Origin: Planctomycetota bacterium
Lineage (GTDB): Bacteria; Planctomycetota; UBA8108; UBA1146
Direction of reading: 5' to 3'
DNA: 64,000 nt
Assembly: GCA_015664425.1 (NCBI GenBank)
Contig: DQQH01000258.1
Coordinates: 9,359 to 73,358 of the forward strand
In this document: positions 52,789 through 58,726 of the stretch, in pieces
How the letters are laid out: every line of letters starts with the position of its first letter
Position numbering within the stretch: position 1 is the first letter of the stretch
Notes under the pieces: generated by a model
Database searches by the model: none
What the model was told of the DNA's origin: nothing
Seen by the model: only the letters and a program-made list of their open reading frames with translations
Position numbers and translations under genes: made by a program

Positions 52789-53412
52789 ATGAAATTCCTG
52801 AGAACCCTGTTCCTTCTCGTTTCTGGTGGCCTGCTGGTCACCGCCCCGGGCACCGTCGAAGGCGCTCCTGGGAACTCGGCGGGGCGAGACAAAAAGGCCG
52901 CTGTGGAAAAGGTGTCCCTGTTGCGGAGCGTCAGGGGGGTGACTCCTCTGCGCACGACCGCTGTGACCCGGAACAAGCGGGCGGTGACCCCCCGGCGCGT
53001 GGTGACGAAGACGCGCTCCAAGAGGACCGTTGTTCCGCTCTCGACGAGGCATTTCCGAGGCAGTATCGATCGTGTTGGCACGGTTCGCTGCAGGCGTAAC
53101 AATCACGTACATGAGTTCCTGCAGGGTGTCAGATTCTTCAATCGTGGCCTCCAGTGCTTCCGAAGGCTCTCCTGCGGGCGGGTGGAGTTTTATCTGCCCG
53201 GCCACTACGAGATGGTTTCGCGGGAAATCATCGAGCCTGGTCGCTGGAAGTACCTGAATACCCGGGTTGCTTTGCCGGTATTCGGCTGTTTCCCGGGCCT
53301 TCTGCGGACACAGCGAAATAGGGTCTGGATCGCGCCGAGAATCCGTGTGGTGACCGAACGCTGCTGGGTTCCGGGAGCCTGGGTCGAAACCCACTCCCTC
53401 CATGTTTCCTGA
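52789..53412 (+). CDS. Hypothetical secreted basic protein
   Basis: RBS AAAGGAAA. Signal peptide MKFLRTLFLLVSGGLLVTAPG. Arg/Lys- and Cys-rich. Followed by a terminator. Confidence 0.5.
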   Translation: MKFLRTLFLLVSGGLLVTAPGTVEGAPGNSAGRDKKAAVEKVSLLRSVRGVTPLRTTAVTRNKRAVTPRRVVTKTRSKRTVVPLSTRHFRGSIDRVGTVRCRRNNHVHEFLQGVRFFNRGLQCFRRLSCGRVEFYLPGHYEMVSREIIEPGRWKYLNTRVALPVFGCFPGLLRTQRNRVWIAPRIRVVTERCWVPGAWVETHSLHVS

Positions 53413-53418
53413 GAAGCT

Positions 53419-53455
53419 GGGGCCGTGTCTCCTGTGCGCGCGGCCCCAGCCCTTT
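53419..53455 (+). terminator. Rho-independent terminator after the secreted-protein gene
   Basis: GGGGCCG...CGGCCCC stem followed by AGCCCUUUUG. Confidence 0.5.
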
Positions 53456-53825
53456 TGCAGAAGCCCTTGATCCAGATCATGGGATCTCATAGGCTGCCGA
53501 CGCAACGCGGGGCGCCAGGCCGAAGTACGCCGCCTGTCTGGGGTCTCGAAAGGGGAATGGGTCTCGGGTTCTCCGCACCTTGTTGTTCCACCTCGCCTCT
53601 CGTGGATCCGAAATCACCGAAAATCTGAATTCAGGCAGCGCCTCAGTTTTGCGTGTTGCCTCAAGTGGTGCATCCTGGCCAGGGGGGAATGGGGATGGCA
53701 GGAGACCCGATCTGGACCGCTCCCACCCCGTCCACAATTGAAATCAAGGAGCCAATGGCCTGTCCGTCCCTACGCTTTCCATGGGCAGGTTCCTCCATTT
53801 CCTCGTTTATTTCAGACCCAAACTC

Positions 53826-53860
53826 CTCCTCACCGAGTAGGGACGGTGAGGAGATTTTCG
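53826..53860 (+). terminator. Second intrinsic terminator inside the intergenic leader, with a competing upstream antiterminator-like pairing
   Basis: CTCCTCACCG-agtaggga-CGGTGAGGAG followed by AUUUUCG. Upstream, 53764-53773 (ccgtccctac) is complementary to 53837-53846 (gtagggacgg), which overlaps the terminator loop and right arm. Confidence 0.45.
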
Positions 53861-53985
53861 TAGGCAATAGGGGCCGTTCGGCAGTCAGCTGGGGAGACCG
53901 TCCAGGCGCCCTCGGCGGCGTTACAACGCTCCCTCGCCTCAGGACAGCGCCTCTTCCGTAACCTCTCCCCTTCCCGCAACTTTTC

Positions 53986-54014
53986 TTTACACCCCCAATT
54001 GGCCGCGCTAGTAT
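53986..54014 (+). promoter_or_regulatory. Sigma70-like promoter candidate for the large regulator gene (TTTACA-17-TAGTAT)
   Basis: ctTTTACAcccccaattggccgcgcTAGTATtacc, about 50 nt upstream of RBS GAGGAGG and the start at 54065. Confidence 0.4.
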
Positions 54015-54064
54015 TACCGTCACGAATCAATACGGTTTATTGGAAGTGAGGAGGTTTCGTGGGG

Positions 54065-57000
54065 ATGACCCGTGAGGAACCGATCGACATGACACCGCAG
54101 GATGCTGAGGATCGGGGCCTCTCACCCGACCGGAACGAGATCCTCGATGAACTCGAGGATCTGATCCGCTGCGCTCTCCTCGCCGAGAGAGGCCAGGGAA
54201 GCGGCGTTGCCCTTGTCCTGGTTCGTGGTGCCAGTGGCCAGGGGAAAAGCCGCCTCGTCGAGGACCTCCTCGAACGCCTCGGAGATGAACGTCCTCTCTT
54301 CCAGGAGGTGGAGTGTCACGAGCGCCAGGGGATTCCCTTCCTGCCGGTGCTCCGTTTGATCAAGAACCTCATCGTATCCAGTCTCGCCCCGCGGGAGTTG
54401 TGGAGAAAATACGCTCACGTTCTGACCCGGGTATTCCCTGAACTGGTGGAGCAACTCGGAGGAGCCATGCCCCCCGATCCTCTGCCCGGGGAGGATGGTC
54501 GGATCCAGTTCCATCAGGCTCTCACCAGTATCCTCCTCGAGTTGGCTGCGGAGAGACCGCTTCTACTGGCGATCCACGACATCCATCGCTGTGATCGGGG
54601 GACGATCGAGTTCATCACATTTCTCGCTCGCAACGTGTTCCTCTCGACCGGCGGCCAACGCTCCGAGGTCGATGCGTCCGCTGGTTCAGAGGAGGGTTCC
54701 CGGGAGTGGAAGCAAATTCACACCCGTGAAGGTCGCGATGGGAAATCGGTCTCGGAGTTCCTCGAATCGGATGAGGGCTCCACCTCCGAGGGGTCTCCGG
54801 GTGCCAGGATCCAGATCGTCGTCAATTACACCTCAAAGGACAGCGCTGCTCGCCTCGCCGGGGAAACGGACGAGGTCCTCGCCTCCCTCGGGCGCCTGGC
54901 AAAGGAGCCCTTCTCGCGGCATTTTGATCTGCCTCCCCTGATGCCTGGCGATCTGGCACAGATGGTCGAGACGGAGGTCGAAGCCCGCTGCGAGCCGGGA
55001 CAGATCGAGAGGGTGTACGAGGCCACCGGAGGCAACCCGCTGCGCGCCCTCGACCTCTGTCGTCTGGTGTCGGAGAGTGGCGGGAACTGGCGGCTTCTCG
55101 ACGACATCTTGCCGGCGATACTCCCGAAAGGAGCGAGTTCTGCTCAGGAGCAGCTGGGGCGTGGCGTCTTCATGAGGCGTCTTGCCTCCTTGCCTGCCCT
55201 ACAGGTGATGGTGCTTCGTTACCTGGCGCTTCTCCGTCGCCCCGCCGATGCCGTCTTCATCGGTGAGGCCTGTCAAAGTGACCCCCAGATCCTCGATGAA
55301 GCCTTGCTGGAACTGACCGATCGAGGGTTCATCCGCTCGCGTCAGGTTCGCAACCTGTCTCGCTTTCACATCGGACATGAGGACCATCTGCGCTGGATTC
55401 GCAGAGGGATCGAGCCCTCCGAAGCCCGACGCTTACAGGGAGATCTGGGACGGATTCTGGCGGAAGATCCACGCGCGAGTGAGCCGGTCAGATCGTTCGA
55501 GATCTACGAGCAGTTGCGGGCTGCAGGTCAACTCGAGGAGTGTAGGGGCCATGGGTTTTCGGCGTTCCGCTTCTTCTCCAGCGCTTACGCCGAGCACCTC
55601 GCAATCCGGGTTGGCCGTGAACTGATCGACTCCCTCGGGGCCGACGGTGATCCGGAGATGCGTCACGACGTGCTGATGGAACTCATCGAGCTGGAGATGG
55701 GGACCGGCCAGCAGGAACTTGCCAAGGCCCACGCCAAGTCCCTCATCGAGGATCCAGAACTGCCGGCTGGCCCGCGTCTCGAGGGGCTGCTCCTCCTCGC
55801 CGAGATTTACTGCCAGCTGGGTGAACCCCTCAAGGGGATCAAGGCCCTCAACCGAGTGCCACGGGAGACGGTGGCGACGGTGGGGGGGCTCTCCGAGGCG
55901 CGCATCACAACAAAGCGCGCACGTCTCCGCCTCGAGCGCCGGGATTTCAAGCGTGCGATCAGCCTCTGCCTGCGGGGCCTCAAGGAACTCGAAGGCACCG
56001 CTGAAGAGCCAGTTCATCTCTCATTGCGTGCCGATCTTCTCGAGTTCCTTTCCGAGGCGCACCTTCGTCGAGGAGAGACCGTCTCGGCCCTGAACCACTA
56101 CCAGTCCCTGCTCGAACTGGTCGAGGGGCTCGGAGATGATGTCCGCCTCTCCTCGGTGCTGAGGACCCTGAGCCGGGTCTACTACGATCGAGGAAATCAT
56201 TTCCGCTCCGCTCGATACCTCTTCCGTGCACTCGAGGTGATCGAGCGCACACGCGATTTCCGCGCTCTGGCCTCCACCTACGAACTCCTCGGCAAGGTCT
56301 ACCGGAATTCAGGCGATTTCCCTCGCAGCCTGGAACACTTCCGACTCAGCTTGCGCCTCCGGGAAAAGATTGGTGATGCGAAACTTCTGTCACCGACGCT
56401 CAATTCCATCGGCAGTCTGCATTCCCACAACGGTGATTACGCTCGTGCCATCCGCTATTTCAAGCGCAGCGTGACCAACAGCGAACGGTTCGGCAGCACC
56501 GATGGAATCGTCCGCTCCTTCCTCCATCTTGGCTGGGTCTTTCACGAGTTGGGCGAACGCAAGCAACTGGAGAGTCTTTGCCGACAGGTGCTGATTCTCT
56601 CCCAGGAGTTCGATCTCCTCGATCTGGAAGCAGAAGGCCACCGGCTCGCAGGAAGCCTCGCCTTCCTCAGGGGGGACTTGAAGAACTCCGAGAAGGAATT
56701 CCGGCGCTCCCTGGAAATCGCCCAGAAGAGAGGAATGACCAAACTCGCAGCTGCCAGCCACCTCGACCTGGCTGCCCTCGAGCAGAAGCGCGAGCGATAC
56801 GAAGCTGCCCTCAAACTGGTCAGCCGGGGAATACTCCAGGCTGAAGAGATCCAGTCGATCCCGTTCCAGGTCAGGGGATTGCTTCTCAAGGGAGAGATTT
56901 CCCGCCATCTCCGCGGTGGCAGCCCAGAACGGACCCGGGAGTGCTACGAGAAGGCGGTCACCCTGGTCTCCGGGGAGACGCTGATGCCGTTGCAGTGGTC

Positions 57001-58429
57001 CCTCTTCTATGCCATGGCTCGCCTCCACCAGACGACGATGGAGGTTGCCGAAGCGCGGCGCTCTTATGACCGTGCGGATCAGATCATCGAACGCATCTCT
57101 TCTCGTCTTCCCGAGGATATGCGGGTCGTCTTCAGAGACGATCGCCGCAGGAAGAACTTCTTCACCGACCTCCAGAGGTTCCGCAAGGAGTCGAGCGAAC
57201 TGGTCACGGTGGAGACCATTTCTCAGGAAGGAAAGGAGGTGACCGGAGAGCGGCCACTCTCTGACTCCGCCGCTGGGCCGGATGGCGATGGCCTCCTCGT
57301 TCGGTTCTTGCCGGTGATCGACCGCCTGGCGATCGCTGAGGATCTGGCGACCTTCTTCCACAGTCTTCTCGAAGAAGCGCGTCGGCTGGTTCCCTCTCCT
57401 CGGGGTTTCATCCTCGAGAGGATCGGTTCGCGCTGGAAGGTGTTTTCCGAGATCGACATGGGTCAGAAGGAGTCGTGGGCGGTCGATGACAGCTTGCCCG
57501 GGGCAATCTCTCTCCTCACCATCGACCGGGATCAGGTGCTTCGTTCCGGTGGCGAGGAGTGGATGAAACTGGTCGAGGACTCCCAGGAAGGGTCCAGTTA
57601 CAAGGGCCGCTCGATGATGGCGATCCCGGTTAAGTTGCCCGACAGGTTTTCAGGGGTTCTTGTTCTGGAGCGTCCCACCGCTGGCAACCCCTTCCAGGAA
57701 GAGGACGGAGATCACCTTCTACAGCTGCTCCGGGTGCTCGGAGGGCAGTTTCGTGCCCTCGTAGCCGGTGACAGTCTCGCTCGCTTCGAGCGGACCTCCA
57801 TCCTCACTCCGAGTGGCTTCGAGGCGAACCTCGGTTACCTCCTCGAGAAGCAGAAGCGCGACAAGGTCCCCCTGGGAGCGATCGAGATGGTGATCCCGGG
57901 GTTGGATCATTTGATACGCCAGCGCACCGGAGAAGAAATCGTCGACAGGTTCAGCGATCTGGCCGGACCTGGTGTCGTTCATTGCCTCCGTCCAGCGGGA
58001 GACCGATACGTCTTCCTTTATCTGGGGCGAAGCCTCGAAGACCTCCAGCAGAAATCCCGGGATCTGGGCCACAGGATCTCCGAACTTCGGGAAGGTGTGG
58101 GTCTGGCCGATCGTTGCGAGATCGACATTTTTGTACACCACATGCCCCTGGACGACAGCGGTCTCGATGGGCTCCGCCGGGCCGGTGCGGGGTATTTCTG
58201 TTCGGGCGAGGTCCCACAGATCGAGAGCGAAGTCGCGACCCTCACCGGCGGGGGTATCTCATTGAAAGAAGCGAAAAGGGCCCTGGAGAAGCGTTACATC
58301 GTCTCCGCCCTGCACAAGAGCGAAGGTAACGTCACCCATGCTGCCGAGGCGTTGGGGATGCACCGCCCGCAGCTTTCCAACCTGTTGAAACGCCATGGCA
58401 TTCGCAGGGAAGACTTCGAGCGCTCCTGA
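54065..58429 (+). CDS. Very large cytoplasmic signal-transduction regulator: STAND/AAA_16 NTPase, TPR array, GAF, degenerate GGDEF-like domain and C-terminal Fis-type HTH
   Basis: Walker A GASGQGKS, Walker B LLLAIHDIH and a GGNP sensor motif. A long TPR region. GAF-like ...SMMAIPVKL...GVLVLER. A GGDEF-like fold with GDRYV in place of GG(D/E)EF. Terminal HTH_8 ...ALEKRYIVSALHKSEGNVTHAAEALGMHRPQLSNLLKRHGI. No sigma54 GAFTGA motif. Confidence 0.75.
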   Translation: MTREEPIDMTPQDAEDRGLSPDRNEILDELEDLIRCALLAERGQGSGVALVLVRGASGQGKSRLVEDLLERLGDERPLFQEVECHERQGIPFLPVLRLIKNLIVSSLAPRELWRKYAHVLTRVFPELVEQLGGAMPPDPLPGEDGRIQFHQALTSILLELAAERPLLLAIHDIHRCDRGTIEFITFLARNVFLSTGGQRSEVDASAGSEEGSREWKQIHTREGRDGKSVSEFLESDEGSTSEGSPGARIQIVVNYTSKDSAARLAGETDEVLASLGRLAKEPFSRHFDLPPLMPGDLAQMVETEVEARCEPGQIERVYEATGGNPLRALDLCRLVSESGGNWRLLDDILPAILPKGASSAQEQLGRGVFMRRLASLPALQVMVLRYLALLRRPADAVFIGEACQSDPQILDEALLELTDRGFIRSRQVRNLSRFHIGHEDHLRWIRRGIEPSEARRLQGDLGRILAEDPRASEPVRSFEIYEQLRAAGQLEECRGHGFSAFRFFSSAYAEHLAIRVGRELIDSLGADGDPEMRHDVLMELIELEMGTGQQELAKAHAKSLIEDPELPAGPRLEGLLLLAEIYCQLGEPLKGIKALNRVPRETVATVGGLSEARITTKRARLRLERRDFKRAISLCLRGLKELEGTAEEPVHLSLRADLLEFLSEAHLRRGETVSALNHYQSLLELVEGLGDDVRLSSVLRTLSRVYYDRGNHFRSARYLFRALEVIERTRDFRALASTYELLGKVYRNSGDFPRSLEHFRLSLRLREKIGDAKLLSPTLNSIGSLHSHNGDYARAIRYFKRSVTNSERFGSTDGIVRSFLHLGWVFHELGERKQLESLCRQVLILSQEFDLLDLEAEGHRLAGSLAFLRGDLKNSEKEFRRSLEIAQKRGMTKLAAASHLDLAALEQKRERYEAALKLVSRGILQAEEIQSIPFQVRGLLLKGEISRHLRGGSPERTRECYEKAVTLVSGETLMPLQWSLFYAMARLHQTTMEVAEARRSYDRADQIIERISSRLPEDMRVVFRDDRRRKNFFTDLQRFRKESSELVTVETISQEGKEVTGERPLSDSAAGPDGDGLLVRFLPVIDRLAIAEDLATFFHSLLEEARRLVPSPRGFILERIGSRWKVFSEIDMGQKESWAVDDSLPGAISLLTIDRDQVLRSGGEEWMKLVEDSQEGSSYKGRSMMAIPVKLPDRFSGVLVLERPTAGNPFQEEDGDHLLQLLRVLGGQFRALVAGDSLARFERTSILTPSGFEANLGYLLEKQKRDKVPLGAIEMVIPGLDHLIRQRTGEEIVDRFSDLAGPGVVHCLRPAGDRYVFLYLGRSLEDLQQKSRDLGHRISELREGVGLADRCEIDIFVHHMPLDDSGLDGLRRAGAGYFCSGEVPQIESEVATLTGGGISLKEAKRALEKRYIVSALHKSEGNVTHAAEALGMHRPQLSNLLKRHGIRREDFERS

Positions 58430-58528: not shown

Positions 58529-58726
58529 TCAGTTGCAGTTGAAATCGTGTGCGCGGACGGTCTTGCGACCGTTGGCGCCGGCACGGCTTGCAGCCTGCTG
58601 GATGTACCAGTGGATGACTTCGTTGAGACCGTCAAGGGCGTCACCACCCACGTTGACCCCGTGACCCTTGAGGGCAGCCTTGGCCTTGCTGCCGACCAGG
58701 AGCATCTCCTTCGTCTGAGTGTTCAT
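58529..58726 (-). CDS. Small bacterial histone-fold protein (DUF1931-like)
   Basis: MNTQTKEMLLVGSKAKAALKGHGVNVGGDALDGLNEVIHWYIQQAASRAGANGRKTVRAHDF fits helix1-loop-long helix2-loop with an RKT motif. The internal ATG was chosen. Confidence 0.45.
   Translation of the reverse strand: MNTQTKEMLLVGSKAKAALKGHGVNVGGDALDGLNEVIHWYIQQAASRAGANGRKTVRAHDFNCN

Follow-up and report, generated by a model that had tools for sequence, protein, structure and literature searches.

A Planctomycetota STAND-class protein with a degenerate GGDEF fold and a Fis-type HTH: a candidate transcription regulator encoded near a conserved structured RNA

We analysed a 64,000-nucleotide stretch from a Planctomycetota bacterium (contig DQQH01000258.1; hereafter the window). 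It carries on the + strand a gene for a large protein in which a STAND NTPase, a tetratricopeptide repeat (TPR) arm, a GAF domain, a degenerate GGDEF fold and a Fis-type helix-turn-helix (HTH) follow one another. An earlier note, made from the sequence alone, had proposed this domain order, and all five modules were found by Pfam or in structure models. We favor the view, with a probability of about 60%, that the protein is a STAND-class transcription regulator which is cytoplasmic, independent of sigma54 and equipped with a putative switch operated by ligand and nucleotide. The coding sequence runs from GTG 54059 or ATG 54065 to 58429 with the stop codon at 58427-58429, equivalent to 1456 or 1454 amino acids (aa). 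It is a single uninterrupted open reading frame (ORF), and the coordinates of all motifs were checked by re-translation.

The homologue search covered 5.8 billion proteins and returned one match with 100% identity (rounded), one with 78% and sixteen full-length ones with 44-49%. The first of these, P0001, covers 100% of the query and was called from the ATG with 1454 aa; in a comparison of loci the ATG of the 78% orthologue lines up with GTG 54059 of the window. The sixteen full-length homologues are 1436-1491 aa long with a query coverage of 94-100%, and all named matches come from metagenome-assembled genomes (MAGs) of Planctomycetota. A scan of GTDB species representatives with patterns specific to the marine clade yielded 33 loci, almost all of them from records titled Planctomycetota. 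Each MAG contributed one locus; two partial matches within the same MAG seem to be one gene divided between contigs. A distant branch of at least 46 clusters was detected by tblastn at an identity of about 25-30%. Its proteins have 1489-1779 aa and the identical architecture. The family spans marine, soil and freshwater Planctomycetota and, as far as records are named, is confined to this phylum. P-loop, GGNP motif and HTH are conserved over more than 60 clusters.

The earlier note had raised the concern that a sequencing frameshift near 56400-57300 might have joined two genes. The alignments of the homologues continue unbroken across this region, and collinear full-length homologues in dozens of independent assemblies exclude a fusion by frameshift. 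The probability that the protein is such an artefact, or that its GGDEF-like domain has remained active as a cyclase, is practically nil, as the domain moreover lacks all catalytic GGDEF residues (see below).

The source annotation of family members reads only "tetratricopeptide repeat protein". Literature searches for a characterised homologue, either with degenerate GGDEF, HTH and GAF or with AAA_16, HTH_8 and GAF, found none, in agreement with the earlier note, which knew of no characterised regulator with this architecture. CdeR of Dickeya, which came up in these searches, is irrelevant. Pfam matched AAA_16, TPR, GAF and HTH_8 but not GGDEF; NCBIfam produced on the full protein only partial matches to corresponding parts of larger families.

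The STAND NTPase and the TPR arm

The P-loop NTPase core (AAA_16, Pfam E 2e-16) comprises aa 36-190 (54170-54634, + strand as are all features of the protein). The full nucleotide-binding oligomerization domain (NOD) with nucleotide-binding, helical and winged-helix parts reaches to about aa 470 (nt ~55474). An AlphaFold2 (AF2) model of aa 1-570 had a predicted local distance difference test score (pLDDT) of 79. Its best Foldseek matches were the STAND/TPR protein PH0952 (6mfv), Apaf-1 (TM ~0.5) and MalT (8bob), with CED-4 and plant NLRs also among the best. Thus the protein has the NOD followed by a repeat sensor arm, one of the features by which Leipe et al. (2004) define the STAND class.

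The Walker A sequence GASGQGKS at aa 55-62 (54227-54250) was established by re-translation and the family alignment. It conforms to GxxxxGK[ST] and is conserved family-wide; even with P0020 in the alignment, which has GMGRS at Walker A, G60 is invariant and K61 is present in at least 90% of the sequences. The GGNP motif of the helical domain, aa 322-325 (55028-55039), has an invariant G323 and N324. These two motifs of the MalT/AfsR-like switch described in the earlier note were retained, but its hhhhDD was not. Walker B reads LLLAIHDIH, where H171-D172-I173-H174 (54575-54586) has a histidine in place of the first of the two acidic residues of the consensus hhhhD[DE]. His-Asp is kept in both branches of the family. 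The sole member with Asp-Asp is P0020, an outlier without HTH in which the Walker A lysine is replaced by arginine. In sequence terms, His-Asp at Walker B genuinely deviates from the STAND consensus and suggests an altered nucleotide chemistry. An acidic low-complexity insertion of about 47 residues (aa 198-244; 54656-54796) lies inside the NTPase domain and is predicted to be disordered (pLDDT <50).

The TPR arm, aa ~570-1010 (55772-57094), was matched by many Pfam TPR families, with TPR_12 at E 2e-26, and its profile matches in the PDB are TPR proteins; a long TPR scaffold is indeed present. TPR_MalT was matched with E 3e-11 and 43.7 bits, which is below its cutoff of 45 bits. Taken together, the protein resembles MalT and the large ATP-binding regulators of the LuxR family (LAL) in the AAA_16 P-loop NOD, a GxxGxGKS Walker A, a GGNP-type motif, a TPR arm and a C-terminal DNA-binding domain, and by analogy oligomerization is likely to follow the same inducer- and nucleotide-dependent logic. 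It differs from them by His-Asp instead of Asp-Asp in Walker B, the disordered acidic insert, the GAF and dead GGDEF domains added between TPR arm and HTH, and the HTH itself, which is of the Fis/NtrC and not of the LuxR type.

STAND plus TPR is also the architecture of Avs-type proteins, and Foldseek gave a weak match with Avs4 (8dgf, E 2e-3). A STAND NTPase serving in anti-phage defence or another conflict would recognise a foreign protein by its TPR arm. Yet PADLOC returned generic TPR and HTH matches only and no signature of a defence system, and the protein carries no nuclease or other killing effector. Its conserved syntenic position among housekeeping genes throughout the phylum is unlike that of mobile defence islands. 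We consider a role in defence highly improbable.

The GAF domain, the degenerate GGDEF fold and the HTH

The GAF domain (PF01590) was assigned to aa 1093-1228 (57341-57748) with a Pfam score just above the gathering threshold and a GAF fold in the structure model. The motifs VPxPRGF, DMG and LERPxAG are invariant in the family. Between GAF domain and HTH about 150-170 residues have no Pfam assignment, and the model folds them as a GGDEF domain (aa ~1245-1378; 57797-58198). The AF2 model of aa 1060-1454, for which the family alignment was the input, had a mean pLDDT of 83. A Foldseek comparison with the PDB placed GAF-GGDEF proteins on top, first DcsbIS (4zmu, E 4e-9), then the phytochrome-linked cyclase 5llw and PelD (4etz/4dn0). 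The alignments extend over 300-350 columns, i.e. over both domains.

On the other hand, neither Pfam GGDEF (PF00990) nor NCBIfam recognised a GGDEF domain in the full window protein, and the Pfam model matched 2 of 17 family members with a best E of 0.0045. A profile of aa 1236-1400 retrieved GGDEF chains as 6 of 14 PDB matches at E 0.4-1, and its alignment to 3ezu sets GGDhl against DGDEF. When the canonical GGDEF domain of the related protein P0163 was compared by hhalign, 131 columns were in register with a probability of 14.6%, LD..L being placed on LDHFK and GGDh on GGEEF. The sequence signal is weak although consistent, and the domain is called GGDEF because of the modelled fold and the register of the alignments rather than on statistical grounds. 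Members of the distant branch open the domain with EP(L/I)TGFYTPSYF(I/V)ERL, which we take to resemble the D-x-LTGL-x-NRR-x-F start of true GGDEF domains. The GAF domain is supported by both Pfam and fold, the GGDEF domain by fold and register.

The earlier note had located GDRYV at the active site. The motif in register with GG(D/E)EF is AGDRY, aa 1311-1315 (57995-58009). Orthologues have GGDHL, GGDRY or GGDSY at this position, the distant branch WGNP(I/V/L) or WGAPI. The metal-binding aspartate of the DxD/DxFK strand is replaced by valine or serine and the lysine by aspartate, and the guanine-contacting Asn/His-Gly-Asp segment is deleted. Because the metal-binding aspartate and GG(D/E)EF are lost, the conclusion that the domain is not a cyclase, which the earlier note had reached, is well supported by the sequences. 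An RxxD inhibitory site (I-site) five residues upstream of AGDRY is absent as well. The window protein has PGVV at -9 to -6 and the orthologues have E-P-N-F; no family member that was compared, including those of the distant branch, has RxxD.

These losses bear on the proposal that the degenerate domain is a receptor for cyclic di-GMP (c-di-GMP) or another nucleotide and would, in the manner of PelD or LapD, control DNA binding in place of the GAF domain. DcsbIS (PA2771) and PelD are the best structural matches of the C-terminal 395 aa and have the same succession of GAF and GGDEF folds; the active site of PelD is degenerate, too. However, PelD and other GGDEF receptors use an RxxD I-site, which the window protein lacks together with GG(D/E)EF and the metal-binding aspartate of the A-site; binding as in PelD is therefore not expected, nor is catalysis. 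Furthermore, the protein is soluble and not membrane-anchored, and an HTH and a STAND/TPR module form part of the same polypeptide. The distant branch has no GGD and nevertheless keeps the architecture. Because the known GGDEF-based binding site is absent, the receptor has no positive support, and we regard it as unlikely.

The output domain is a Fis-type HTH_8 (PF02954, Pfam E 2e-8), aa 1406-1443 (58280-58393), where conservation within the family is highest. Its profile matches in the PDB are the C-termini of 5m7n ('nitrogen assimilation regulatory protein') and FleQ, and in NCBIfam those of a PEP-CTERM response regulator, GlrR, AtoC and NorR. Such a C-terminal HTH_8 is a feature of bacterial enhancer-binding proteins. 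The window protein had no Pfam match to Sigma54_activat (PF00158), the module with the GAFTGA loop, nor to the LuxR-type HTH (GerE, PF00196) typical of MalT and LAL regulators. The combination of a Fis-type HTH with no sigma54-activating AAA+ module, already noticed earlier, was thus borne out. It sets the protein apart from enhancer-binding proteins with a GAF domain, such as NifA, FhlA, NorR and Nlh1/Nlh2 of Aquifex, which have the sigma54-interacting AAA+ with its GAFTGA loop.

The architecture is not isolated. Uncharacterised proteins built on the same scaffold have detectable homology to the window protein in their AAA_16, TPR, GAF and HTH_8 parts. They include P0039, P0075 and P0102 with the order (Pkinase-)AAA_16-TPR-GAF-sigma54 AAA+-HTH_8, P0078 and P0081 with AAA_16-TPR-sigma54-HTH_8, P0186 with Pkinase-AAA_16-TPR-GAF-GGDEF-GAF-sigma54-HTH_8 and P0210 with GAF-GGDEF-GAF-sigma54-HTH_8. 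P0163 has the order Pkinase-AAA_16-TPR-GAF-GAF-GGDEF with a canonical GGDEF domain. Lic12324 of Leptospira combines a protein kinase, AAA_16, GAF and SpoIIE (PMC5100919). In contrast to the scaffold relatives the window protein has neither a sigma54 AAA+ module nor an N-terminal kinase, and its degenerate GGDEF domain directly precedes the HTH. Judged by these domain orders it is a new combination within a recurrent, uncharacterised modular class. Most likely its ancestors were AAA_16-TPR-GAF-GGDEF(-GAF-sigma54 AAA+)-HTH_8 proteins that lost the sigma54 module and whose cyclase site decayed. The protein does not amount to a new kind of system; its interest lies in domain evolution and in the biology of Planctomycetota.

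Promoter, candidate operator and proposed mechanism

A promoter-like site, TTTACA-17-TAGTAT (53986-54014, + strand), precedes the regulator gene, and its -35 and -10 blocks are conserved over orthologous loci. Just 3' of the -10 block lies the dyad CCGTCACGAATCAATACGG (CCGT-N11-ACGG; 54017-54035, +), a candidate operator. Most marine orthologues have a second copy exactly 43 bp upstream that covers the -35 block. In the window this upstream copy (53974-53992) is degenerate and only the downstream one is intact. Such an arrangement would suit an HTH protein that oligomerises and controls its own gene, with the regulator as the presumed binder, and in the marine clade the regulator probably controls itself through the dyad beside its own promoter. 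The dyad was also considered as a marker of a regulon and rejected, as the remaining exact copies in the window and the loci are of two sorts: some keep no fixed position, and others come back as near-identical sequences at different places and are probably conserved coding sequence.

In the proposed mechanism a small molecule bound in the GAF pocket, a partner bound to the TPR arm, or both would release the autoinhibition of the NTPase switch. Nucleotide-dependent oligomerization would follow as in MalT and Apaf-1. The unit of GAF domain, helical linker and dead GGDEF domain may derive from an ancestral GAF-GGDEF cyclase and serve as a coupler that dimerises, and coupler and oligomerization together would set the geometry of the C-terminal HTH_8 pair on DNA. 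The AF2 model has a helical linker (H153-180) between the GAF and GGDEF-like domains. A comparable linker is known from dimeric GAF-GGDEF cyclases.

Several points weigh against a STAND-class transcription regulator of this kind. DNA binding, ligand, oligomeric state and targets are all inferred for the family. The His-for-Asp exchange in Walker B may mean that the NTPase binds nucleotide without hydrolysing it or that it is no switch. The Pfam score of the GAF domain is only at threshold in the window protein (22.8 vs 22.4 bits). The distant branch has no dyad, and the window has only a degenerate form of the upstream copy; moreover, another factor could bind the dyad.

The upstream RNA and the neighbouring genes

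Upstream of the promoter the + strand of the window carries a conserved structured RNA of about 100 nt (53758-53859). It consists of two hairpins with covarying pairs, and its 3' end resembles a terminator, with a U-tract closing most copies. The hairpin loops UCCCUAC and GUAGGGA are exact complements and probably form a kissing interaction, and one loop-loop pair covaries from C-G to U-A in L008/L009. The centre between the hairpins is an invariant CU-rich single strand, CCUCC...UUCAGACCCAA. In alignment A7 (23 sequences) 99.3% of the cells were paired and 11 pairs had changed on both sides, with slid controls at 42-50%. A8 (38 sequences; metagenome matches plus the window) gave 97.6% paired cells and 8 pairs changed on both sides, with slid controls at 38-52%. 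The G-U pairs identify the + strand as the transcribed one. A small ORF (MACPSL...) at this place was rejected: its ATG lacks conservation, indels do not come in multiples of three and the changes are compensatory.

At gathering scores Rfam had no match in the whole window. At E<=1 over 53350-54100 no match fell on the RNA, and the only one, snoRNA sR36 at 54040-54094, was at chance level (13.6 vs a cutoff of 55 bits). Neither tRNA nor tmRNA was found in the window, and a search of the literature brought up no matching BrkB/YihY riboswitch or RNA motif of Planctomycetes. A pattern scan of metagenomes returned 80 stretches, about half of them by chance; only the 37 instances confirmed by a covariance model (L041-L118, from varied metagenome projects) were used. 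The loci are of the Planctomycetota type, and the covariance model also located the RNA in additional genome loci. Coordinates of further copies are 9755-9860 in L001, 4237-4342 in L003, 7114-7221 in L004, 3628-3738 in L144 and 3455-3564 in L145.

Where the flank suffices, the order is almost always RNA, BrkB/YihY gene and regulator homologue on one strand, down to 25-30% identity of the regulator. The BrkB/YihY gene (PF03631) lies between RNA and regulator in most lineages outside the window's subclade: at 8180-9565 in L003, 4076-5638 in L144 and 4251-5699 in L145, and likewise in L051, L058, L059, L108 and L116. In the window's subclade BrkB is absent from the locus, and the 64-kb window has no BrkB homologue; because the gene is missing, the RNA is located 200 nt from the regulator. 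A divergent pair of genes for an extracytoplasmic function (ECF) sigma factor and a zf-HC2 anti-sigma factor lies upstream in L144, L145 and L004 (two long-read genome contigs and the P0020 locus). Extra genes are inserted after the RNA in L003. In two lineages (L044, L087) the RNA lies between tyrS and an S-adenosylmethionine (SAM) methyltransferase gene, with neither BrkB nor regulator nearby.

The earlier note had described a structured RNA leader. The structured RNA was confirmed by covariation, but its role as a leader was not: because of its own terminator-like end, the conserved promoter between RNA and regulator, the BrkB gene that intervenes in other lineages, the inserted genes in L003 and the two lineages with the RNA in an unrelated locus, the RNA is probably an independent small RNA gene and not a dedicated leader of the regulator. 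RNA, BrkB/YihY membrane protein and regulator might also constitute one undescribed regulatory module found throughout the Planctomycetota. Marine and soil lineages alike have them in the same order and on the same strand. The RNA could then be a riboswitch-like sensor embedded in a terminator or a regulatory small RNA with CCUCC as an anti-Shine-Dalgarno sequence, and would act in one pathway with the regulator. The ECF sigma/anti-sigma pair and FtsH nearby hint that this pathway might concern the envelope or stress. We put this forward tentatively and think it rather unlikely.

On the other side of the regulator gene a convergent gene (58529-58726, - strand) codes for a 65-aa bacterial histone-fold protein of the alpha3 type. 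In phmmer against the PDB it matched 9qt0 ('DUF1931 domain-containing protein') with E 4e-10 and Bd0055/HBb (8cmp) with E 4e-4, which confirms the histone-fold neighbour named earlier; Pfam had no match at E<=0.1. Histones of the alpha3 type are already known in Planctomycetota (PMC11390915). The protein is 70-86% identical across the marine clade, where its gene adjoins the regulator in nearly all loci. It could be argued that the protein, instead of controlling particular genes, is associated with chromatin or the nucleoid, where it would cooperate with the histone-fold protein and use its HTH like Fis. Fis itself is a nucleoid protein, and the convergent histone gene stays within about 100-1000 nt in nearly all marine-clade loci despite changed neighbours. 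But convergent genes are not co-transcribed, the distant branch has oxidoreductase or methyltransferase genes and no histone downstream of the regulator, and a STAND sensor of 1454 aa does not resemble the abundant proteins of the nucleoid. We consider a nucleoid-associated factor very unlikely and have downgraded the histone as a functional partner. Its adjacency is marine-clade synteny and not a component of a system.

Two genes precede the RNA on the + strand. One codes for a TPR protein of ~520-650 aa (50748/51144-52718). Its TPRs are C-terminal; it also weakly matches the protein kinase C-lobe (Pkinase, E 0.038) and may be a pseudokinase. The other codes for a 207-aa Arg/Cys-rich secreted protein (52789-53412) with an N-terminus like a signal peptide and no Pfam family. 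This gene pair is specific to the marine clade, and FtsH precedes both in orthologous loci. The flanking secreted-protein and histone genes are present as described, but they are conserved with the regulator only within the marine clade. The first ~200 nt past the secreted-protein gene (53413-53610, +) are visibly over-conserved for intergenic DNA in L038, the locus of the 78% orthologue, with no detectable conservation in more distant loci. A 3' untranslated region, a small ORF or a second RNA could account for this constraint.

Gene regulation in Planctomycetota is poorly understood, and this widespread family of putative regulators, seemingly present once per genome, has been annotated only as "TPR protein". 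If the structure models are correct, the regulator is an example of a GAF-GGDEF cyclase unit turned into a coupler without catalysis that connects a STAND switch with a Fis-type HTH, a position which the sigma54 AAA+ engine fills in related proteins. Its own promoter with the dyads, the motifs of the GAF pocket and the His-Asp Walker B offer entry points for study. The more surprising item, however, is the unannotated RNA motif. Linked to the regulator, about 100 nt long, with strong covariation and no counterpart in Rfam, it is a separate discovery for RNA biology.

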